From an uncultured Syntrophomonadaceae bacterium (GTDB taxonomy: Bacteria > Bacillota > Dethiobacteria > DTU022 > PWGO01), in the NCBI GenBank assembly GCA_964636865.1, contig CAZWVJ010000006.1, forward strand, positions 24,882-88,881: 64,000 bases of DNA. The letters run 5' to 3'. Positions 3,982-32,206 of this stretch are shown piece after piece. Below the pieces are notes generated by a model. The model ran no database searches and had not been told where the DNA came from. It worked only from the letters and a program-made list of their open reading frames with translations. Positions within the stretch are counted from its first letter, which is position 1. Each line of letters opens with the position of its first letter. A program made the translations under genes and the position numbers.

Positions 3982-5085
3982 CTAAATTCGCATAAAATAT
4001 TTTCCCGGCAACTGCCGCACAAAGCCCTTCATTTCCAAGTTCAAAATTAGCTCGCTGAATTTTGACGGCGAAAGATCACCCTCCCGAATTATTTCATCGG
4101 CATGGGTGGGTTGAAAAGATACCAGATTAAGCAAATCTTCTTCCTCTTTTTCTAAAAAGCTCATCTGCCCTGTTTCTTTATGTTCCCCATCTTCATTCTT
4201 GCTGCCCCCGCTTTCAGTTATGGCCAGCCCCACCTCTTCTAAAATATCATCCAAGGCATCCAAAACCTTGGCGCCCTGTTTAATTAAACGATTGCATCCC
4301 CGGCTGTATGGACTGTTGATATTGCCCGGCACGGCAAATACTTCTCTCCCCTGTTCAAGGGCAAAATCTGCCGTAATCAAAGCACCGCTTTTTTCCATGG
4401 CTTCTACTACCACTGTTCCCATAGATAAGCCACTGATAATGCGATTTCGACGGGGAAAATGCTGGGGGATAGGTTTAGTGCCAACGGGAAATTCACTAAT
4501 TACAGCTCCGCTTGTACCGATTTGGTGTTTCAAAAATCGATTTTGAGGAGGATAACACACATCCGCGCCCGAGCCCAACACCGCTATAGTCCGGCCACCA
4601 CCTTCCAGGGCCCCCTTGTGCGCCCAACTATCAATCCCCAAAGCCATTCCGCTTACTACGGTAACTCCTAAATATGCCAGTTCCCGGGCAAATTTCAAGG
4701 CAATTTCCTTACCATAAGCAGTTGCCTTGCGACTGCCCACTATGGCTATTGTTATTTCTCCATTCTTTAGTTCCCCTTCTCCGTAAATAAGCAGGGGCGG
4801 ATAAAATATTTCCTGCAGTAAATCCGGATACTGCGGATCTTCTTCCGTTAAAACCCATATTCCACTGTTTTGTAATTTGTCCCATTCATATTTAACATCG
4901 ATGCGGGACCTTTCCCCGGCAAATTTTTGGGCAAGGGAACCCCAACCATCAACTTTTTGAAGAAAGCTCACAGGAGCTTTCCAAGCCTCAGCAGGATCCG
5001 GTATATACCGCAGCAGGGACTTTATCCTCCGAGGACCCAAATAAGGCACCATGTTAAAAGCATTCAAATATGCTGTTTTCTCCAT
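3982..5085 (-). CDS. dprA: DNA processing protein DprA (Smf)
   Basis: 367 aa. Rossmann-like DprA core IVGSRKATAYGKEIALKFARELAYLGVTVVSGMALGIDSWAHKGALEGGGRTIAVLGSGADVCYPPQN. Lies upstream of topA as in Firmicutes. Confidence 0.9.
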   Translation of the reverse strand: MEKTAYLNAFNMVPYLGPRRIKSLLRYIPDPAEAWKAPVSFLQKVDGWGSLAQKFAGERSRIDVKYEWDKLQNSGIWVLTEEDPQYPDLLQEIFYPPLLIYGEGELKNGEITIAIVGSRKATAYGKEIALKFARELAYLGVTVVSGMALGIDSWAHKGALEGGGRTIAVLGSGADVCYPPQNRFLKHQIGTSGAVISEFPVGTKPIPQHFPRRNRIISGLSMGTVVVEAMEKSGALITADFALEQGREVFAVPGNINSPYSRGCNRLIKQGAKVLDALDDILEEVGLAITESGGSKNEDGEHKETGQMSFLEKEEEDLLNLVSFQPTHADEIIREGDLSPSKFSELILNLEMKGFVRQLPGKYFMRI

Positions 5086-5115
5086 TTATCCCTTCCGCTT
5101 ACTACTCTGTTTATT

Positions 5116-6360
5116 TTAATAGCGGTTTTTATATTCCATGATATGATTTTCCCATGTCCGCAAACATACTTTCTCATCATAAAAATTCACCAGATAATTA
5201 GGAAGTATGGGGGTTTTCCCATAACCTCCAGGACTGTTTAAAATATAAGTAGGAATAGCCAACCCGGAAGTATATCCCCGCAGTTGCTCCATGATTTCAA
5301 TTCCTTCTTCAACCCTGGTGCGGAAATGTGAAGTTCCCTTTACTTCTTTCGCATGAAATATATAATAAGGGCGGACCATTATCCGCAAAAGCTCCTGGTT
5401 CAGTTTGCGCATCACATAAGGATTATCATTTACCCCCCTCAGCAAAACAGCCTGGTTGCCCAGCGCAGCCCCTGCCCTGGTCATTTTCATACAAGCCTCT
5501 CCGGCATCGGGGGTAACCTCCAGAGGGTGGTTAAACTGGGTATTCACATAAAGAGGCATGTGCCGGGACAATATTTCACACAGCTCATCATCCACCCGAT
5601 AAGGAAGTGTAACCGGCGATCTTGTCCCCAATCGTTTAATCTCCACGTGAGGAATATTTTCCAACTCGGTAAGAAGCCAATCAATGGTATCGTTTTCCAG
5701 CATAAACGCATCACCGCCGGTTAGCAAAACATCCCGTATTTCTTCATTGTGGCGGATATAATCGAGGGCTGCTTTCAAAGTCTCTTCAGTTGCATTGGTA
5801 TCCGTCTCCCCAATATCACGCCTTCGCTGGCAGTGACGACAAAACATGGCACACTTGTTGGTTACATTTATGATTAACCGGTCGGGATATCTGCGGGTAA
5901 TTGCCGGAGCAGGAGAGGTATTTTCCTCATCCATGGGATCCATTTCACCAAGGGTATCATAATACTCCATGGCAGTGGGTATGGATTGGCGACGCACCGG
6001 ATCTGCCGGATCATCTTGATCAATAAGGCTCAAATAATACGGAGAGACAGCCCAACGATACCTGGAACCGGTGGTATTAATATCAACCGCCTCTTCCTCA
6101 TCAATATTCAGCAGTTCCCGCAATTTATCCGTATCAACGACTCTATTTGCCAGCTGCCACCTCCAATCAAACCACTCTGTAGAAGAGACACCAAAGGCGG
6201 ACTGTATTTCTGCCTGGTTCTTTTTTATTCGTTCCCAATCTTTATATCCGGAAGGTATCTCCTGCGAAACTTCCAGGTAGTCTTTTATGTTTTCTTTCAG
6301 TTGAGCCGCTCTTGCTAAAGACTTTTCCCTTCTTTGCTTTTCTTGATCTTGCGCCTCCAT
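5116..6360 (-). CDS. kamA: Lysine 2,3-aminomutase (radical SAM, KamA family)
   Basis: 414 aa. KamA-type N-terminal extension and radical-SAM cluster motif CAMFCRHCQRRR (CxxxCxxC). The length and layout are typical of clostridial KamA. Confidence 0.8.
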   Translation of the reverse strand: MEAQDQEKQRREKSLARAAQLKENIKDYLEVSQEIPSGYKDWERIKKNQAEIQSAFGVSSTEWFDWRWQLANRVVDTDKLRELLNIDEEEAVDINTTGSRYRWAVSPYYLSLIDQDDPADPVRRQSIPTAMEYYDTLGEMDPMDEENTSPAPAITRRYPDRLIINVTNKCAMFCRHCQRRRDIGETDTNATEETLKAALDYIRHNEEIRDVLLTGGDAFMLENDTIDWLLTELENIPHVEIKRLGTRSPVTLPYRVDDELCEILSRHMPLYVNTQFNHPLEVTPDAGEACMKMTRAGAALGNQAVLLRGVNDNPYVMRKLNQELLRIMVRPYYIFHAKEVKGTSHFRTRVEEGIEIMEQLRGYTSGLAIPTYILNSPGGYGKTPILPNYLVNFYDEKVCLRTWENHIMEYKNRY

Positions 6361-6848
6361 ATTAATACCTCCAAAATATATTATTTCTATGTATTAAGCA
6401 CAATCAAAAATTTAACTTGTTTATCCCTTAAAACCTGTGCATTGTGCATTAAGTTTTTTTAACACTCTTTTACCACCTAAACAAAGCGTACTCTCATTAG
6501 CTTTTCTAATCTCTGTCAGAATGAGAAGAGTGTAACATAAGCTTTCAAAGTTGTGAACCTTACCTTAGAATCTATGAAAGAAAAAGAAAATATAGCGACC
6601 CAAAATTTTTCAGAGTCTAAATCAATTGCCGTCTTAAATATTAATTAATAAATTATGTGCATATGTGTAAAAAAGAACATCTGATTAACAGCATTTCATC
6701 CCGTTGCAAATATTATTCTTCGGTGGTTTTTATTCTAACATTAAGTGCCTGAGCTTGTTGCAAAACTTCTCGTAAAAAAATATTATAAACAATTAAAATA
6801 ATATTTCCTTCCGGCACTACATGTAATTATAAAAACACCGTATTGGCA

Positions 6849-7235
6849 TTACAGAGAAAATTCGGTAAAAGCTGTTTCTTCCTTAATTTCTTTAATCCGG
6901 TTGAGATGATCAACAAAGACTACCCGCGGCTTGAAATTTTTTAACTCCTCACCTGTCATGCCCGCATAACTTATAATAATTACTTGATCACCGGGCTGAA
7001 CCAGGCGAGCTGCAGCTCCATTTAGGCAAACGTCTCCTTCGCCGGCTGGGCCGGCAATAACGTAAGTCTCTAACCGGGAGCCGTTATTATTGTTGACCAC
7101 CTGCACCTTTTCATAAGGTAAAATGTCTGCCGCTTCCATGAGGGAAGAATCAATTGTAATACTGCCCACATAGTTTAAATTAGCCCCTGTTACCGTGGCC
7201 ACGTGAATTTTTGATTTACACATGAACCTTAACAC
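6849..7235 (-). CDS. panD: Aspartate 1-decarboxylase
   Basis: 128 aa. [23 protein letters not shown]...[15 protein letters not shown]...CLNGAAARL matches the PanD pyruvoyl enzyme almost residue for residue. Confidence 0.95.
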
Positions 7236-7239
7236 TCCA

Positions 7240-8112
7240 TCACACCTCCACTAGTAAATTGTCAATAAGCCTGGCCTGACCAAATTTTACCGCCAACGCC
7301 AGCAAAACCGGCTCTTGAATTTGATCTACTTTTTGCAATTTCTTTTTATCCACTATTTCAACATAATCGGGAGCAGCTAACGGTTCTTGAGACAAGTTTT
7401 GCCACATAAACTTGCGTAGAACCTCGGCATTTCTTTCCCCGGCAATGATTTTTTCCCGGGCAGCAAGGAGAGTTGAATAAATAATCCGGGCAGCTTTCCT
7501 TTCTTCCGGATGCAAGTACTTATTGCGAGAACTCATAGCCACTCCATCATCTTCCCTTACTGTAGGGCAAACGACTATTTCTACATTCATATTAAGATCT
7601 TCAGTCATTTTTTTTATCACCAACGCCTGCTGGGCATCTTTCTGCCCAAAGTATGCTTTGTCGGGCTCAACCAGGTTAAACAGCTTGTTTACCACCGTGG
7701 TAACCCCCCTAAAATGAACGGGCCTGGAAGCGCCGCACAAAACTTCCGTAATTTCTTCTACATTAACATAGGTGAGATAATCCGGAGGGTACATAGCCCT
7801 CACCTCCGGATAAAAAATGAGATCGCACCCTTCCTCTGCCGCTTTTTTCCGGTCACCCTCTAAATCTTGCGGATAATCCTCATAATCTTCTCCCCGCCCA
7901 AATTGAATTGGGTTTACAAATATGCTCATTACCACATAATCTGTTTGTTTTCTCGCCTCCCGCAGGAGAGAAAGATGCCCTTCGTGTAAAAACCCCATAG
8001 TAGGGACTAAACCTATGCTTTGGCCTTCTGATTTTACCCCCTTTACTTCATTTTTTAGTTCTGTTAAATCCCGTATTAACTTCATCTCCACTATATCACC
8101 CAAAAATTTCAA
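7240..8112 (-). CDS. panC: Pantoate--beta-alanine ligase
   Basis: Motifs [17 protein letters not shown] and the HIGH-like nucleotidyltransferase fold. The start is uncertain: the track start at 8112 is a TTG. Alternatives are a GTG near 8092 and an ATG at 8086. Confidence 0.85.
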
Positions 8113-8135
8113 TTATCATATTTTGTGATGAAAAG

Positions 8136-8987
8136 CTATTCCTTCAGCGCTTCTTTAATTTTTTCAAAAATATCTTCCGGCATTTCAAAGCGGTGTTCTT
8201 CAGCCGGAAATTTGCCTTCTTTTACTTCTTGAATATAACTCTGAATTCCTTTTTCCATTTCCGCCCGGGCATTGGCATATTCCTTAACAAACTTCGGGCG
8301 TTTGCCGGTAGTCAAGCCCATCACATCATGATAAACTAAAACCTGCCCGTCACACTGTTCTCCTGCTCCGATGCCTATGGTGGGAATGCCGATAGAACGG
8401 GTAATCAACCCCGCCAACAACCAGGGGACACATTCCAATACAACTCCGAAAGCACCCGCTTCTTCCAGCTTCCTGGCGTCATCAACCATTTTTAAAGCCG
8501 TTTGAATGTCTTTTCCCTGAACCTTGAATCCCCCCATTTGCCCCACAGATTGGGGGGTCAATCCCAGATGTCCCAGCACGGGTATTCCGGCTTCGGTTAT
8601 TCCCCGGACCGCATCAATTATTTCCACACCACCTTCTAATTTGACAGCATCCGCGCCGGTCTCCTGGATTGCTTTTTTCACATTTTCCATTGCCTTTTCT
8701 CTGGTAATCTGGTAAGTCATAAAAGGCATATCAATAATGACCATGGCCTTCTCAACTCCACGCACTACAGCTCGTCCGTGATGAATCATATCTTCCAGGG
8801 TTACCGCCAATGTATTCTGGTAACCCAAAACTACCATGCCCAGCGAATCACCTACCAGAATTATATCTACATCCGCCTGATCAACCAGTTCGGCAGTGGG
8901 ATAATCATACGCCGTAAGCATGGTGATTTTTTCCCCGCTGCTTTTCTTCTCTTTGAGGTCTAAAATCGAAGTTTTACTTTCAGGCAT
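8136..8987 (-). CDS. panB: 3-methyl-2-oxobutanoate hydroxymethyltransferase
   Basis: 283 aa. KITMLTAYDYPTAELVDQADVDIILVGDSLGMVVLGY...TLEDMIHH is the canonical PanB sequence. Confidence 0.95.
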   Translation of the reverse strand: MPESKTSILDLKEKKSSGEKITMLTAYDYPTAELVDQADVDIILVGDSLGMVVLGYQNTLAVTLEDMIHHGRAVVRGVEKAMVIIDMPFMTYQITREKAMENVKKAIQETGADAVKLEGGVEIIDAVRGITEAGIPVLGHLGLTPQSVGQMGGFKVQGKDIQTALKMVDDARKLEEAGAFGVVLECVPWLLAGLITRSIGIPTIGIGAGEQCDGQVLVYHDVMGLTTGKRPKFVKEYANARAEMEKGIQSYIQEVKEGKFPAEEHRFEMPEDIFEKIKEALKE

Positions 8988-26363: not shown

Positions 26364-26752
26364 ACCTCCCCTTAAATTCTATTATCGTTTCTTTTATTTC
26401 CCCGAGCAATTATAGTTATGAAAAAAATTATTTTTCCATCAGTTATAGATTTTTTAATATCTTATCAGTTGATTCCTCTTCTCTGTGTTATTATACAAAC
26501 CCTTTTTCTTCTAATAAATTAAGACATGAAAAATAACAATTATTACTATACTACTGGAAAAGCTGCCAGATGGATATTTATATGTCAAGACGACACCAAT
26601 GGGAAAATGAAGTAAAAGACTACCAAATACTAAAATACTATATGCTAACCCCGCATTTGAATCCATCATAGGGCTAAAAAAAGAAGAACTCGTGGACAAA
26701 AGTTTTTCGGAAATAATAGTAGAAGAACAACTACAAACAAATAAAATAAGTA

Positions 26753-26923
26753 TTAATGGAGAGGATAAAAAGGCATACCTTTGGTGTTTCCAAAATACTG
26801 GAACATTTTGGTACTTCCACAATCATTGCATACAACGTTTAGCCCTTTTTCTTTTTCTGCAACAGTCGCCCTTACCTCTTTTGTTTGGCGGCAATCCTCA
26901 CAAATAAAATCATAAACAGGCAT
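26753..26923 (-). CDS. FmdB-family zinc-ribbon protein (putative regulatory protein)
   Basis: 56 aa. MPVYDFICEDCRQTKEV...CNDCGS matches the FmdB signature MP-x-YE/DF-x-C-x-x-C...C-x-x-CG. AAGGAGG lies 7 nt upstream of ATG 26923. The 71-aa track ORF begins at an upstream alternative start. Confidence 0.65.
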   Translation of the reverse strand: MPVYDFICEDCRQTKEVRATVAEKEKGLNVVCNDCGSTKMFQYFGNTKGMPFYPLH

Positions 26924-26986: not shown

Positions 26987-28534
26987 TTACTTCTCTTCCA
27001 TTTGCTTCATAATCTCTTCCCCTATAGCGTTTGCGCCACCAAATATAAATACATGGGGAAGTAAATCTGATGATAATGAATTCAGATAATCAACCACTGA
27101 CAGGGGCATATCTGTAGGTCCGGCAAGCAACATCGGAGCTTCAAGGGTAGCCGCATAGGCTCCACCGCTTAAAGCGTCGGGAAAATCTAAACCACTGGCA
27201 ATGGTAACATTAGAAGGCCCCTCAAAAAACCTTTCCGCTAAATTCACCGCAGTCTCCCACCGATTATTCCCCGCAATACGCTCACCGGCACCGGATTCTT
27301 CATATACTTCCTCACTGAGAACAGAGGCGCCTCCCACAACATAGACCTCCTCTAAATCATCCTTATAGCTTCTCAAAAATTCCTCCGTCTTTACATCCAA
27401 AGAGGAAGAAGGAGACAGCAAAGTTATACCTCCCCCGCTGGCAGCCACACTGGAGACAGCTAACGCATCAGGAAAATTCTCTCCCGTAGCCATAAAAACA
27501 GGAAAATTGCCTTCCTCCTTTTTCAAAAACTTTTTCCCTACCTTCACCGCAGTTTCATAACGATCGTTCCCGGCAAGCCTTTTCACTTCATAATCATAGT
27601 TTTCTTCTATCTCATATTGAACCTCCGCAGAAATAGCTGCATCACCGCCTAAAATATAAACAGTGCCATCAGACCGTAGTACACGTTCTATTTCTGCAGC
27701 AGTATCATCATGCAACCTATCCGCAGGGGTAAGCAAAAGAGGGCCATTGCTGTGATAAGCAAAGGGGCTCCCCGCCAAAGCATCGGAAAATTCATCTCCC
27801 CGTGCCAAAACCACCGCATCCGCCGATTGAGAATTGGGAAACGCTTCCCGGCTTATCTCCATCGCCGTCCGGTAGCGCGATTCTCCGAAAATACGATTCT
27901 TTGATTTAACAGATACAAGGACCTCCGTTCTTAATAACCCCCGGAGAAAATCATTAACAATACTTTCTCCATAAGTTGAAGACGGAGCCCATCTACCTCC
28001 GAGTTCTTCTACATATTTAATTGTCCCGGCCCAACTGGTAGTCAATACTACATAATATCTTCCATGGGGTTCACCCACAGGGTCAATATCTACATAAGCT
28101 CCAATATGATTAAAATGGCCACGGACGCCATCTTCCGGAGTGTCGAATTTTTCATGAGCGTCAGGGCAATCACAGGGCCCTCCCTCTGCTGTTTTGATGC
28201 CGGCCCAATTGTTAAAACAAGGCTCCACGACGCCGCCATATCTACCAAAAGCTGTTTCCTTGGCTGACTGCGCATAGAGAACTTCCGGCCTGATACCCAT
28301 TAACCTGCCATACTCCCAGTAAGTTGGCGCAATATCTATAAACCTCTGGTGAGCATCCCTGCTTTGAGCCCATTTTTGCGCTTGAGAAACAGAAATTTCC
28401 GGTTCACCTATTATAGGAGTTTTAGAAGAACAAACATTAATTTCTTCAGTCCATAAAACCTCATGCCCTAAAGCCAGGGAAAAAAATAGGGCTACCACAC
28501 AAATAATTAAAGTGTAACTTATTTTTTTTACCAT
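26987..28534 (-). CDS. Cell-wall hydrolase: N-terminal mannosyl-glycoprotein endo-beta-N-acetylglucosaminidase (GH73-like) domain + 3 CWB2 cell-wall-binding repeats
   Basis: 515 aa. Signal peptide. Glucosaminidase motif SAKETAFGRY...NNWAGIK. Three repeats of the ...NRYETAV...FPDALAGS...type (CWB2, as in clostridial Cwp proteins). Confidence 0.7.
   Translation of the reverse strand: MVKKISYTLIICVVALFFSLALGHEVLWTEEINVCSSKTPIIGEPEISVSQAQKWAQSRDAHQRFIDIAPTYWEYGRLMGIRPEVLYAQSAKETAFGRYGGVVEPCFNNWAGIKTAEGGPCDCPDAHEKFDTPEDGVRGHFNHIGAYVDIDPVGEPHGRYYVVLTTSWAGTIKYVEELGGRWAPSSTYGESIVNDFLRGLLRTEVLVSVKSKNRIFGESRYRTAMEISREAFPNSQSADAVVLARGDEFSDALAGSPFAYHSNGPLLLTPADRLHDDTAAEIERVLRSDGTVYILGGDAAISAEVQYEIEENYDYEVKRLAGNDRYETAVKVGKKFLKKEEGNFPVFMATGENFPDALAVSSVAASGGGITLLSPSSSLDVKTEEFLRSYKDDLEEVYVVGGASVLSEEVYEESGAGERIAGNNRWETAVNLAERFFEGPSNVTIASGLDFPDALSGGAYAATLEAPMLLAGPTDMPLSVVDYLNSLSSDLLPHVFIFGGANAIGEEIMKQMEEK
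26990..27890. repeat. Approximately 0.9-kb direct repeat, copy A (CWB2-repeat coding region of the glucosaminidase)
   Basis: Long runs of near-identical nucleotides shared with 28563-29480 (for example ccaccgcttaaagc[a/g]tcgggaaaatctaaaccactggcaa...). Antisense pseudo-ORFs 27710-27904 and 29298-29486 are also mirrored. Confidence 0.8.
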
Positions 28535-28559
28535 AAGAAAGCTCCTTGTATTTTGATTT

Positions 28560-30794
28560 TTAATACAATACTCTTACCAATTTAGCATAAATTATGTCTA
28601 AAACACTTTCCCTTATAGCATTTGAACCACCATATATATTTACTGCGGGTAAATTCGGATTTTTTGTTTCTAAATGAGCCATAACGGCTTCGGAAAGATT
28701 ATCAAGCCCGGTAAGCACCACCGGAGCTTCAAGAGTAGCCGCATGGGCTCCACCGCTTAAAGCATCGGGAAAATCTAAACCACTGGCAAAGGTAACATCG
28801 GAAGGTTCCTCAAAGAACCTTTCCGCCAACTTCACCGCAGTTTCCCACCGATTATTCCCCGCAATACGCTCACCGGCTCCGCATTGTTCATATACTCTCT
28901 CACTGAGGGCAGAGGTACCTCCCACAACATAGACCTCTTCTAAATCATCCTCATAGCTTACCAAAAATTCTGCTGCCTTCACCTCCAGTGACGAAGAAGA
29001 GGAAAGCAATATTATGCCCCCCCGACTGGCAGCAGCACTGGCCACAGCTAATGCATCAGGGAAATTCTCTCCCGTGGCCATAAAAACAGGAAAACTGCCT
29101 TCCTTATCTTCCAAAAACTTTTCCGCTATCTTAACAGCAGTTTCACAACGATCATCACCGGCAAGCCTTTTAACTTCATGATTAAAGTTTTCTTCTATCT
29201 CATCTTGAACTTCCGCAGAAATAGCAGCATCACCGCCTAAAATATAAACAGTACCATCAGACTGCAGAACACGTTCTATCTCATCAGCAGTATCATTATG
29301 CAATCTATCCTCAGGGGTAAGCAAAAGTGGGCCATTACTGTGATAAGCAAACGGACTACCCGCCAGAGCATCGGGAAAGTCATCTCCCCGCGCCAATACC
29401 ACCACCTCTGCCGATTGAGAATTAGAAAAAGCTTCCCGGCTTATTTCCACTGCAGTCCGGTAACGATTATCTCCATGAATACGTGAAACATCCGCAGTTT
29501 TAATAAAATGTTCCATTAAATGTTCCACACCATCTCTTATTTCAGAAAATTTATCATACAAATTATTCCCCGGGCAGCTTGTATTGCCTACATCTCTATG
29601 ACCGCATATGCGAGGAACATTATTTTTACCTCCTATGCTGGCTGAACCCAGTGGAGTTAGTGAATACTGGCTAAAACGCCAGGCAATTAATTTTTCCAGG
29701 CTGGACAAAGCCTCACCGGTGGGGTAGCCGGAATCAATCGCACTATAACCCGGTTGAAACTGCCCTATTAATGAAATCCCAACACTGGCCTGATTATTCC
29801 CCGAGCCGGCATGCGCTCCCTGCACATCCTGAAATTCCAGGTTATAATTTTCCCGGCCTTCATAAATGTTACCTTCATGGTCTATAAGAAAGTTATAACC
29901 GATATCCCACCAGTCTCTATTAATCGCATGATGATACCAAATATTTCTGACAACCTGCTCGGGGTTAGAAGGCTCGTTTTCAGTAGCAGTATGATGGATC
30001 ACAGCATGAGATACGTCTATAATGGGATATTCGGAAGGATCTCTGTAATTACCATCATCTTCATCTTTGCTTAAATCTCCTCCCCACTCTTCTCTCCTGA
30101 TAATATTAGGCATATTATTATAAGAAGTAGATAAGGGAAACAGCAAAGGCCTGATAGAACTCGCCAGAGTGGCATCATTCAAAGATAACTCTTCATCCTT
30201 TGTATTGCTTTTAGGTTTGTCATCTTTTTCTAAAGAGCCATCGGCTACTGAAACCTTTATATGATCAATTTCTTCATTTGCAGGAAGCTTAAACAATATT
30301 TCAAAAGAAGTATGAGGAGTATCTCCTTTTGTTAAATATAAATCAGACCAGCGCAAACCGGATGGGTTTTCCTCCGTCCGGCTATCCAAAACTAACTCAT
30401 GCCATTTTCCATACTGCCCGTTATTTTCTTTAGTGCGCACCTTGATCATATATTCTTCGAGGTTTAAAGATTCATCTACGGTGGAATCTGAGGAAGACTC
30501 CCCTCCTATTCCTATGCTTAAACCTGTAAAGGGAATCTCTGATTTACGTTCAAATCTATATGGCTTATCTTTCTCATATCCTTCCTGTAAAAACCATTTA
30601 AAATCCGCAGAAGGCATACCTGTTTTTTCTTCATTCAATTCAACCAAAGGATCACCGGCTTCTTGATATCCATCTGTATGCTTGCTAGCAGCTTCCACCG
30701 GTTCTATAATAATTATAATTAATAAAACTAAAGCTATACAATAACAAAACTTGAATTTTTTTAGGTAATTCAAGCCAAGCTCCTCCTTTTTCAT
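28560..30794 (-). CDS. Cell-wall hydrolase: N-acetylmuramoyl-L-alanine amidase (Amidase_2/PGRP) domain + 3 CWB2 repeats
   Basis: 744 aa. Signal peptide. Amidase_2 motifs (HHTATEN...GYNFLIDHEGNIYEGR...CGHRDVGNTSCPG). The C-terminal 300 aa are about 85-90% identical to the C-terminus of the adjacent glucosaminidase. Confidence 0.7.
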   Translation of the reverse strand: MKKEELGLNYLKKFKFCYCIALVLLIIIIIEPVEAASKHTDGYQEAGDPLVELNEEKTGMPSADFKWFLQEGYEKDKPYRFERKSEIPFTGLSIGIGGESSSDSTVDESLNLEEYMIKVRTKENNGQYGKWHELVLDSRTEENPSGLRWSDLYLTKGDTPHTSFEILFKLPANEEIDHIKVSVADGSLEKDDKPKSNTKDEELSLNDATLASSIRPLLFPLSTSYNNMPNIIRREEWGGDLSKDEDDGNYRDPSEYPIIDVSHAVIHHTATENEPSNPEQVVRNIWYHHAINRDWWDIGYNFLIDHEGNIYEGRENYNLEFQDVQGAHAGSGNNQASVGISLIGQFQPGYSAIDSGYPTGEALSSLEKLIAWRFSQYSLTPLGSASIGGKNNVPRICGHRDVGNTSCPGNNLYDKFSEIRDGVEHLMEHFIKTADVSRIHGDNRYRTAVEISREAFSNSQSAEVVVLARGDDFPDALAGSPFAYHSNGPLLLTPEDRLHNDTADEIERVLQSDGTVYILGGDAAISAEVQDEIEENFNHEVKRLAGDDRCETAVKIAEKFLEDKEGSFPVFMATGENFPDALAVASAAASRGGIILLSSSSSLEVKAAEFLVSYEDDLEEVYVVGGTSALSERVYEQCGAGERIAGNNRWETAVKLAERFFEEPSDVTFASGLDFPDALSGGAHAATLEAPVVLTGLDNLSEAVMAHLETKNPNLPAVNIYGGSNAIRESVLDIIYAKLVRVLY
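28563..29480. repeat. Approximately 0.9-kb direct repeat, copy B (CWB2-repeat coding region of the amidase)
   Basis: Paralogous copy of 26990-27890 at an estimated 85-90% nucleotide identity. Confidence 0.8.
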
Positions 30795-30920
30795 TAACCT
30801 TACTATAAATAAACTTCCTGACTATAGCTTAACCATGCATCTTTTACTTTCTTTCAAATAATCCAAATATATTCCCTCCGGGTGGAAACCCCTACATCAA
30901 TCACTTACAAATATACCATT

Positions 30921-30957
30921 TTAAAAAGCTGGAAGCTTAGCTATTAAAGCTTCCAGC
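30921..30957 (-). terminator. Rho-independent terminator immediately 3' of tRNA-Leu
   Basis: Inverted repeat AGCTGGAAGCTT / AAGCTTCCAGC with an 8-nt loop. On the minus strand it is followed by CTTTTT. It starts 2 nt after the tRNA CCA end. Confidence 0.6.
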
Positions 30958-30958
30958 C

Positions 30959-31045
30959 TGGTGCGAGCGAAGGGACTTGAACCCCCACGGGCGAATGCCC
31001 ACTAGGTCCTGAACCTAGCGCGTCTGCCGATTCCGCCACGCTCGC
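30959..31045 (-). tRNA. tRNA-Leu(CAG): tRNA-Leu (anticodon CAG), CCA encoded
   Basis: Reverse complement reads GCGAGCGUGGCGGAAUCGGCAGACGCGCUAGGUUCAGGACCUAGUGGGCAUUCGCCCGUGGGGGUUCAAGUCCCUUCGCUCGCACCA. The 7-bp acceptor stem is GCGAGCG/CGCUCGC. The anticodon stem CUAGG/CCUAG carries loop UUCAGGA, giving anticodon CAG. There is a long variable arm GGGC...GCCC and a T-loop GGUUCAAGUCC. Total length 87 nt. Confidence 0.9.
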
Positions 31046-31258
31046 CCAATGTTATTATATTCTATAGCTTAGCTTTTTCGTACAGTATACATCATACTTT
31101 CCATAAATGCAATAAACAGTCTTACTTCCTTCCCTAACCTAATATTATCATTTAAATAATTCACCTACAAATATTACACTCATAGATGGGTAATTAATCT
31201 ATCTTTTCCTGAGATAACCCCCTGGATAACAACACAATCAAACATTTTTTTAGTATTA

Positions 31259-32206
31259 TTATTTTGACATGCCCAGGTATTTATAAGGAAATTTTATATT
31301 ATACGGTGAAACTATTTTCAAAGCTTTTTCCATTACCTGAAATTTTAAAGGAAATTTTTCCATGTTTTTGGTTTCACCGTCAATTTGTACGGGCATGGTA
31401 TCATCTTCACAATTGATAACCAATTCTTTTGCCTTATCTAGATGAATGCCGTTCATCCAGGTAAATTTTCTGGCAAATGTTAGTACTCCCATAACAACTT
31501 TCCGCGGGTTGCTAATGGGATCTACAATTTCAAAGTCCAATAACCCATCATCAATTTTTGCCTGGGGGGCAATGCAAAGCTGCCCTCCATAAAAACGTCC
31601 GTTTGCCACTACCGTTAAAAAAGTTTCTTTGGTTTGCACTTCTCTATTGTCCAATCGATATGATACAGCCCGGGGAGGAAAATTAATGTGCTGGAAACAA
31701 GCAGAAACATAGCCCGGATAGCCCTTTAACCAATAATTATCGTCAGTGGCCGTTTGAGAGACCTGCGCATCAAAACCAACTCCAACCGCATTTAAAAATA
31801 TGTTGTCGTTAACCTTGCCCAGGTCCATCTCTATCACCGGCCAATAAAACAAGCCTTTCAAAGCAAGTATGGCATTATGAGGCACCCTCACCGAACGGCG
31901 GAAACCGTTTGCCGTCCCCCCTGCGATAAGTCCAAGGATATTTTTTTCCAGGTCTATGCCATTAACTGCTTCTTTCAAAGTGCCGTCTCCGCCAACGACT
32001 ACAATGAGTTCCGCTCCGTCTCTACTTGCCCGCGCTGCCGTTTTAGTTACATCTCCCTCATCATCACCGCTAAAATAAACTTCGTAGTTAACACCTTTTT
32101 CACGCAAGTAAGATTCTATAGTATTCCACGTCTTCCCACCTCTTCCTCCTCCGGAATGAGGGTTCACCACAAAAGAAGTCTTATATGGAAAACTTTTGGT
32201 TTTCAT
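31259..32206 (-). CDS. Diacylglycerol kinase catalytic domain lipid kinase (DagK/YegS/BmrU family)
   Basis: 315 aa. NPHSGGGRGG...IVVVGGDGTLKEAVNGI matches the DAGK_cat family. Confidence 0.75.
   Translation of the reverse strand: MKTKSFPYKTSFVVNPHSGGGRGGKTWNTIESYLREKGVNYEVYFSGDDEGDVTKTAARASRDGAELIVVVGGDGTLKEAVNGIDLEKNILGLIAGGTANGFRRSVRVPHNAILALKGLFYWPVIEMDLGKVNDNIFLNAVGVGFDAQVSQTATDDNYWLKGYPGYVSACFQHINFPPRAVSYRLDNREVQTKETFLTVVANGRFYGGQLCIAPQAKIDDGLLDFEIVDPISNPRKVVMGVLTFARKFTWMNGIHLDKAKELVINCEDDTMPVQIDGETKNMEKFPLKFQVMEKALKIVSPYNIKFPYKYLGMSK

Follow-up and report, generated by a model that had tools for sequence, protein, structure and literature searches.

How do two neighbouring genes that encode unrelated catalytic domains come to carry wall-anchoring modules so alike in their DNA? 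The question is raised by a locus in a 64,000-nucleotide (nt) stretch of contig CAZWVJ010000006.1, from an uncultured Syntrophomonadaceae bacterium (the whole stretch is referred to hereafter as the window, and positions are given in its coordinates). Two genes lie here one behind the other on the minus strand: gene B encodes a putative amidase and gene A, downstream of it, a GH73-like glucosaminidase. Each protein ends in three CWB2 repeats, an arrangement proposed in a first-pass annotation of this DNA and borne out by Pfam (CW_binding_2, PF04122; three stretches each, at 192.6 bits for A and 197.2 bits for B against a cut-off of 24.9). That annotation ascribed the likeness of the anchors to recent domain shuffling or gene conversion and drew attention to an adjacent tRNA-Leu gene as a possible recombination hotspot. 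We consider it likely that the pair forms an autolysin operon, probably co-transcribed, in the chromosome of a soda-lake Firmicute, and that its anchors have been homogenised by gene conversion.

The DNA that the two genes share is a single ungapped block (local alignment and blastn), in which 112 of 776 positions differ, i.e., 85.6% identity, within the 85–90% estimated at first pass. A shared repeat is therefore present as described, although at 0.78 kb it is shorter than the 0.9 kb first given, and “near-identical” overstates it (the whole 0.9-kb anchor modules are 81% identical, with 35 nt as the longest perfect run). The copies form tandem direct repeats 1.59 kb apart, the encoded proteins align at 73% identity over 306 residues (E = 7e-139), and tblastn and blastn searches of the 64-kb window located no further CWB2 gene. 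At its 5′ edge the similarity sets in where the CWB2 module begins; the 3′ edge falls inside CWB2 repeat 3, and not at a domain boundary. A maximum chi-square test places this breakpoint at module nt 776, with identity dropping from 85.6% before it to 52.8% over the last ~130 nt, a value that none of 1000 permutations reaches. Synonymous and nonsynonymous divergence (dS and dN, Nei–Gojobori) follow the same division: the window anchor body (codons 6–259) has a dS of 0.41 and a dN of 0.09, with low dN/dS (0.19–0.23), and the tail (codon 260 to the end) a dS of ~0.9 and a dN of 0.71. The A and B tails share 31% amino acid identity, a level also seen between CWB2 modules from unrelated genomes. 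A breakpoint inside repeat 3 argues that both genes already had full anchors, and that most of one was later overwritten by the other.

A scan of genome collections, a metagenome scan and exact-protein look-ups identified one sister lineage, represented by three independent assemblies: L002 (a Joint Genome Institute (JGI) soda-lake sediment contig), L003 (PUKQ01000117, labelled “Syntrophomonadaceae bacterium” B1Sed10_75) and L008. The lineage is ~91% identical to the window in nucleotide sequence and collinear with it from NfeD through the ABC transporter, tRNA-Leu, B and A included; orthologue dS in the catalytic parts is 0.24–0.31. We examined site patterns among four sequences (window A and B, sister A′ and B′) along the anchor module. 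Module nt 17–575 contain 15 concerted sites and no orthology sites, and here A′ and B′ are 95–98% identical with a dS of 0.056; one more concerted site, the 16th, falls shortly before the tract, at nt 12. The pattern is reversed in nt 585–780 (11 orthology sites, 0 concerted) and in the module tail (46 and 0, respectively), with Fisher tests returning p = 1.3e-7 within the homogenised part and p = 3e-15 overall. A bounded tract (~560 nt) in which paralogues are far closer than orthologues is what gene conversion typically leaves when it takes place after two lineages have separated. Donor states in the sister tract form a mosaic of A-type and B-type runs, which suggests more than one conversion event or patchy repair. 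Together, the sharp breakpoint, the heterogeneous dS and the younger sister tract sustain gene conversion as the origin of the 3′ repeat.

The epithet “recent” fares less well, since the window copies (dS 0.41) are more diverged than the orthologues; the last homogenisation in this genome predates the split. The tandem itself is found in a far more distant locus, L011, whose amidase is only 37% identical and which has the same order, amidase-CWB2 then glucosaminidase-CWB2. Its anchors are 56% identical as proteins and give only short DNA matches of ~74%, from which it follows that the tandem is old and that the anchors of the window lineage became so alike secondarily. A further locus, L004, carries three CWB2 genes side by side, among which there is no long DNA repeat; adjacent CWB2 genes in L011 and L004 are only 33–56% identical, and DNA-level homogenisation of anchors is absent from both of these control loci. 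An amidase homologue with 40% identity carries the label Dethiobacteria. The repeat had also been proposed as a substrate for recombination that would delete or fuse the genes, a role for which it is now poorly suited, given its 14% divergence and lack of long identical runs.

Several points weigh against this account. The site patterns draw on two lineages only, and the number and direction of conversion events lie beyond their resolution. The window genome itself contains no tract in which the paralogues are closer than the orthologues, and conversion within it depends on the breakpoint and the dS heterogeneity alone. The GH73 call for A depends on a modest Pfam score and on weak fold E-values (see below). 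Furthermore, all data are short-read metagenome assemblies, in which repeats can be mis-joined, and two of the sister contigs break inside the repeat.

The last of these points could be taken further, in that the arrangement might be an assembly product, the repeat having been duplicated, collapsed or joined chimerically in a metagenome contig: the contig has a source of the metagenome-assembled genome (MAG) type, L003 starts and L008 ends within the repeat, and L002 has N bases in its A′ anchor. We regard such an artefact as extremely improbable, as the many differences between the copies, the intact ORFs (open reading frames) and the in-frame fusion of each copy to a different catalytic domain all speak against it, as does the recovery of the arrangement in three independent assemblies of the sister lineage. 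Agreement among these is at least 99.7%, and L003 holds both copies on a single contig (98.5% identical over 200 nt), observations which argue against chimeric assembly. L003 position 1 and L008 position 6439 both fall in the B′ anchor at module nt ~372–430, within ~60 nt of each other in a 98%-identical repeat, and it is the repeat that makes the contigs break here. Purifying selection alone, acting without recombination on a ligand-binding surface common to both anchors, would sit well with the low dN/dS of the body and with the binding of a common wall polymer by CWB2 modules (established for C. difficile). Selection at the protein level would not, however, cut dS from ~0.9 to 0.41 (or to 0.056 in the sister lineage), nor would it be expected to generate a step change at one nucleotide position, and the modest identities of neighbouring CWB2 genes in L011 and L004 tell against it too; we hold this explanation to be very unlikely. 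Less remote, though still unlikely, is a recent partial duplication or domain shuffling without gene conversion, whereby the B anchor was copied onto a GH73 catalytic domain, or the GH73 gene supplied the anchor to B, and the copies then diverged. Shuffling is common in the family (the A-type GH73 domain occurs elsewhere with SLH, dockerin, Amidase_2, Amidase_3 and Cu_amine_oxidN1 partners) and the 5′ edge of similarity does match the start of the module, but the 3′ edge matches no domain boundary, and beyond it the genes remain homologous yet anciently diverged. A graft would also leave the second, younger sister tract, with a dS well below that of the orthologues, and the same tandem architecture in L011 to be accounted for.

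The tRNA gene invites a different explanation, namely that the two genes inserted at the 3′ end of tRNA-Leu, whether as an endolysin pair or as cargo carried by a prophage remnant or genomic island. The pair does lie just downstream of that end (the tRNA is 164 nt upstream of the B ATG), and ~360-residue Amidase_2-GH73 fusions among the homologues resemble phage lysins. An attachment (att) repeat is nevertheless lacking: the tRNA 3′ end matches only the tRNA itself in the 64 kb, even when two or three mismatches are allowed. No integrase or phage gene was seen among the neighbours, Pfam scans of ten neighbouring ORFs gave matches to housekeeping families only, and the G+C content of the locus (0.41–0.45) is like that of its flanks, with no compositional anomaly. 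The tRNA keeps its position in L002 and L008, as do B, A and the flanks in the collinear sister lineage, and the proteins have signal-like N-termini and S-layer-type anchors, as is typical of host autolysins. The tRNA is a separate transcription unit, with a terminator read from the sequence at ~30922–30957 (hairpin GCTGGAAGCTT...AAGCTTCCAGC followed by TTTTT). Nothing in support of a mobile origin or an endolysin role was found among these features, and we judge either highly improbable; the hotspot proposal is unsupported, and of the “autolysin or endolysin-like duo” put forward at first pass, signal-like N-termini and non-covalent anchors favour the autolysin and the lack of phage context disfavours the endolysin.

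Returning to gene conversion between host autolysin genes, the events can be ordered into a tentative scheme. Judged by their domains, the amidase encoded by gene B would cut the MurNAc-L-Ala bond and the GH73-type glucosaminidase encoded by gene A the glycan strand; both enzymes would be exported through their N-terminal signal-like sequences and, by analogy with the Cwp proteins of C. difficile and LytC of B. subtilis, held non-covalently on the wall by the C-terminal triple-CWB2 module, presumably through a wall polymer. Non-reciprocal homologous recombination between the tandem genes, putatively of RecA type, would have overwritten the first two CWB2 repeats and half of the third, leaving the final ~45 codons with their old gene-specific sequence; in the window genome the last such homogenisation would precede the split from the sister lineage, in which a further conversion (~560 nt) would have followed later. 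Whether repeated conversion of the anchor body, with the tail spared each time, is selected, as opposed to incidental, is a separate matter, and we think selection rather unlikely. If it were true, both hydrolases would stay matched to one fast-evolving secondary wall polymer and adaptive anchor change could spread between the genes; the spared tail of repeat 3 would serve a role particular to each enzyme (positioning, for example, or contact with a partner); and tandem anchor conversion would be a general route by which Firmicutes retarget sets of surface enzymes together.

The product of gene A is 515 residues long and matches Pfam Glucosaminidase (PF01832) at 35.6 bits (cut-off 30.2) over residues 70–192. 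Its catalytic domain belongs to a subfamily well conserved across many Firmicutes (homologues 50–71% identical), in which the domain is fused to SLH, dockerin, Cu_amine_oxidN1, Amidase_2 or Amidase_3. Glu93, in the motif KETAFG, is invariant across 25 homologues and is the candidate catalytic glutamate. No relative of the catalytic domain was found in the PDB by sequence. An AlphaFold2 (AF2) model of the domain (predicted local distance difference test score, pLDDT, 90) was compared with the PDB using Foldseek; 14 of the top 16 matches are GH73 enzymes (LytB, TM0633, Auto, Acp, SagB, AtlE, Atl, and AtlA), the other two being a C. difficile endolysin glucosaminidase domain and a type VI secretion system effector complex. 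These fold matches are weak, the best (LytB, 7pj4) having E = 7.6e-3 and a TM-score of 0.50. The N-terminus of A presents basic residues followed by a hydrophobic run, with a possible cleavage site at ALG/HE (read from the translation); residues 7–32 form a single helix in the AF2 model, and this segment could instead be an uncleaved membrane anchor.

In NCBIfam, the catalytic region of A (27896–28534) has a sub-threshold match (53 bits, cut-off 500) to the C-terminal portion of TftA, a cyanobacterial hormogonium morphoprotein; this is taken to mean that A and TftA have this GH73 subfamily in common.

Gene B is an ORF of 744 codons, or 737 when counted from a TTG at 30773. This TTG is where the database proteins for B and its orthologue (P0001 and P0002) begin; it is preceded by GGAGG and is the probable true start. 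The protein comprises, in order, a putative signal peptide (basic residues and a hydrophobic run, with VEA/AS as a possible cleavage site, again as judged by eye from the translation), a conserved N-terminal domain predicted as a β-sandwich, Amidase_2, and the three CWB2 repeats. The match to Amidase_2 (PF01510) scores 65.6 bits (cut-off 26) over residues 261–410, and sequence searches of the PDB return PGRP3 (8e-18) and T7 lysozyme (7e-5). His260/His261 (in VIHHTAT), His392 and Cys400 (in GHRDV..TSCPG) are invariant in 14 homologues; from the T7 lysozyme motif we take the His/His/Cys set to be zinc ligands, and their retention suggests a catalytic rather than a recognition-only form.

The N-terminal domain of B (~140 residues) has invariant positions at Trp60, Phe82, Thr83, Trp124, Trp142, His154, Ala177 and Asp178 (alignment A3), and displays the motifs PSA.F.W, FTGLSVGW, PE.NPSGLYWS.LY, and VSVADAS. 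It adjoins Amidase_2 in homologues with CWB2, type IX secretion system sorting (PF18962) or Big_5 C-termini, and named homologues that combine it with CWB2 anchors come from Dethiobacteria, Chloroflexota and Nocardioidaceae. The AF2 model of the first 430 residues of B is poor overall (pLDDT 51.9), reaching 70–90 in residues 40–180 only; weak Foldseek matches (E ~2e-3) to the jelly rolls of C-CPE, CBM4 and the ephrin ligand-binding domain are suggestive of the predicted β-sandwich. We consider the domain a candidate for a new wall-binding or regulatory module.

Among PDB sequences, the best matches of B are the CWB2-anchored C. difficile proteins Cwp8 (5j6q, E = 1e-29) and Cwp6 (5j72, 6e-26), and SlpH is matched too. 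The CWB2 modules of the L011 pair (4302–8530) carry long, low-complexity loop insertions rich in Asn, Asp and Glu (e.g., 32 residues in the amidase, following helix 1 of its first repeat), of which the window proteins are free.

Comparison with known systems places the pair among the autolysins. The closest resemblance in the anchor is to the C. difficile Cwp family (the Cwp6 amidase and Cwp8) and the high-molecular-weight subunit of SlpA, in all of which a non-covalent triple-CWB2 anchor is fused to a variable domain; Cwp6, however, has Amidase_3 where gene B has Amidase_2, the anchor is C-terminal in both window proteins, and identity to the Cwp anchors is low. In B. subtilis the amidase LytC (CwlB), from lytABC, and the glucosaminidase LytD serve as vegetative autolysins, and LytC and LytB share CWB2-type repeats within one operon. 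The window pair likewise joins an autolysin amidase with a glucosaminidase (and a LytC-named CWB2 protein, P0039, is among the database matches), but LytC is an Amidase_3 enzyme with an N-terminal anchor and LytD is encoded elsewhere with different repeats, whereas the window enzymes are adjacent and use one anchor type. Atl of S. aureus and AtlE of S. epidermidis, both among the fold matches of A, similarly pair an amidase with a GH73 glucosaminidase, each enzyme carrying some of a common set of wall-targeting repeats; Atl differs in being one polypeptide cleaved in two, with GW/SH3b-like repeats that bind lipoteichoic acid, in place of two genes with CWB2. For the recombination itself, tufA/tufB of Salmonella are an example of concerted evolution of bacterial paralogues by gene conversion. 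As there, non-reciprocal recombination homogenises part of the paralogues, similarity within a genome exceeds that between species, and the tract edges are sharp; the window differs in that conversion affects just the domain which two otherwise unrelated genes have in common, and in that the copies are tandem direct repeats.

Both domain architectures are already known (NALAA-2+CWB2 and GHF-73+CWB2 are each tabulated in a review; Vermassen et al, 2019, PMC6403190), and this is an ordinary autolysin pair, not a mobile element. Tandem pairs and concerted anchor evolution are not discussed in that review, literature searches combining CWB2, autolysin or cell-wall binding with gene conversion yielded no papers, and DNA-level homogenisation between adjacent cwp genes is not reported in the literature searched. 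What the locus adds is a case, with site-pattern statistics and from an uncultured soda-lake Firmicute, of concerted evolution of a shared wall-anchor domain in two otherwise unrelated adjacent hydrolase genes; understanding of autolysins is unchanged by it. For annotators, such repeats should not be taken as recent duplications or mobile elements; for MAG assembly, contig breaks are to be expected at them, as in the two relatives described, and in this way one gene of the pair may go missing from MAGs of this group; and in CWB2 phylogenies, anchor and catalytic domains will differ in history.

Table. Features of the hydrolase locus and its immediate neighbours, in window coordinates.
Feature	Position	Strand	Basis
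FmdB-family CxxC zinc-ribbon gene, 56 aa	26753..26923	-	NCBIfam TIGR02605, 37.3 bits; synteny in L002 and L003
Gene A, GH73-like N-acetylglucosaminidase with 3 C-terminal CWB2, secreted or membrane-tethered (predicted)	26987..28534	-	ORF, Pfam, intergenic sequence
A anchor, three CWB2 repeats, 302 aa	26990..27895	-	Pfam, 3 stretches
A-specific diverged tail of CWB2 repeat 3	26990..27119	-	dS/dN, breakpoint, amino acid identity
Homogenised repeat, copy in A	27120..27895	-	alignment; max-chi-square breakpoint
A catalytic domain, ~aa 38-205, divergent GH73 subfamily, invariant E93-T94	27920..28423	-	Pfam, homologues, AF2, fold matches
Gene B, secreted (predicted) N-acetylmuramoyl-L-alanine amidase	28560..30794	-	ORF, Pfam, database starts, ribosome-binding site, PDB sequence matches
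B anchor, three CWB2 repeats, 307 aa	28563..29483	-	Pfam 197 bits, Cwp8 5j6q
B-specific diverged tail (second half of CWB2 repeat 3 and C-terminal extension)	28563..28707	-	identity, dS/dN
Homogenised repeat, copy in B (CWB2 repeats 1, 2 and first half of repeat 3)	28708..29483	-	alignment
B Amidase_2 catalytic domain, zinc amidase of PGRP/T7-lysozyme type	29565..30014	-	Pfam, family alignment, PDB sequence matches
B N-terminal domain, ~aa 40-180 of 737-aa form, no Pfam family	30234..30656	-	alignment, AF2, Foldseek
tRNA-Leu(CAG), not part of the hydrolase system	30959..31045	-	ARAGORN; Rfam 52.7 bits

The layout of the genes bears on their expression. Gene A begins 25 nt past the B stop codon (ORF list), with a ribosome-binding site (AAGGAG) 7 nt upstream of its ATG within this spacer, and no terminator was found in the spacer; the short distance makes co-transcription of B and A probable. 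A scan for promoter and terminator consensus sequences performed no better than on shuffles. The zinc-ribbon gene starts 63 nt downstream of the A stop codon, a position kept in the sister lineage, and may be a third cistron. Further out, the locus is flanked on one side by NDK, NfeD, SPFH and DAGK (a DAGK/YegS-type kinase), and on the other, beyond the zinc ribbon, by DUF4282, class II fructose-bisphosphate (FBP) aldolase, FmdE and an ABC solute-binding protein (SBP_bac_5).

Between the tRNA-Leu terminator and the B start lies a leader of ~150 nt (30774–30925) that is ~96% identical to that of the sister lineage, synonymous sites differing by ~25%; this conservation suggests a promoter or regulatory leader. 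Its folding z-score (-0.19) gives no sign of stable structure, and Rfam, scanned at gathering score over the whole window and by E-value over 30700–31300, returned the tRNA only. Two tandem c-di-GMP-I riboswitch aptamers (2330–2441 and 2656–2742; 74.9 and 85.4 bits, gathering score 35) occur in L004, where they precede the three CWB2 genes, which encode an S8 protease, an Amidase_2 amidase and a CWB2-SH3 protein; their placement hints that c-di-GMP may control surface-enzyme clusters of this kind. No c-di-GMP-I riboswitch is present in the window.

One difference from the sister lineage lies immediately beyond the zinc-ribbon gene. In L002 (7880–9496), a 600-residue PAS-PAS-HD/HD_5 (HD-GYP-like) signalling gene stands between the zinc-ribbon gene and DUF4282; ~1.6 kb of this gene is missing from the window, where ~210 nt at 84% identity are left (26519–26746), adjoining a dubious 103-residue ORF (26511–26822) with no Pfam match. 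Either a deletion in the window genome or an insertion in the sister lineage would explain the difference.

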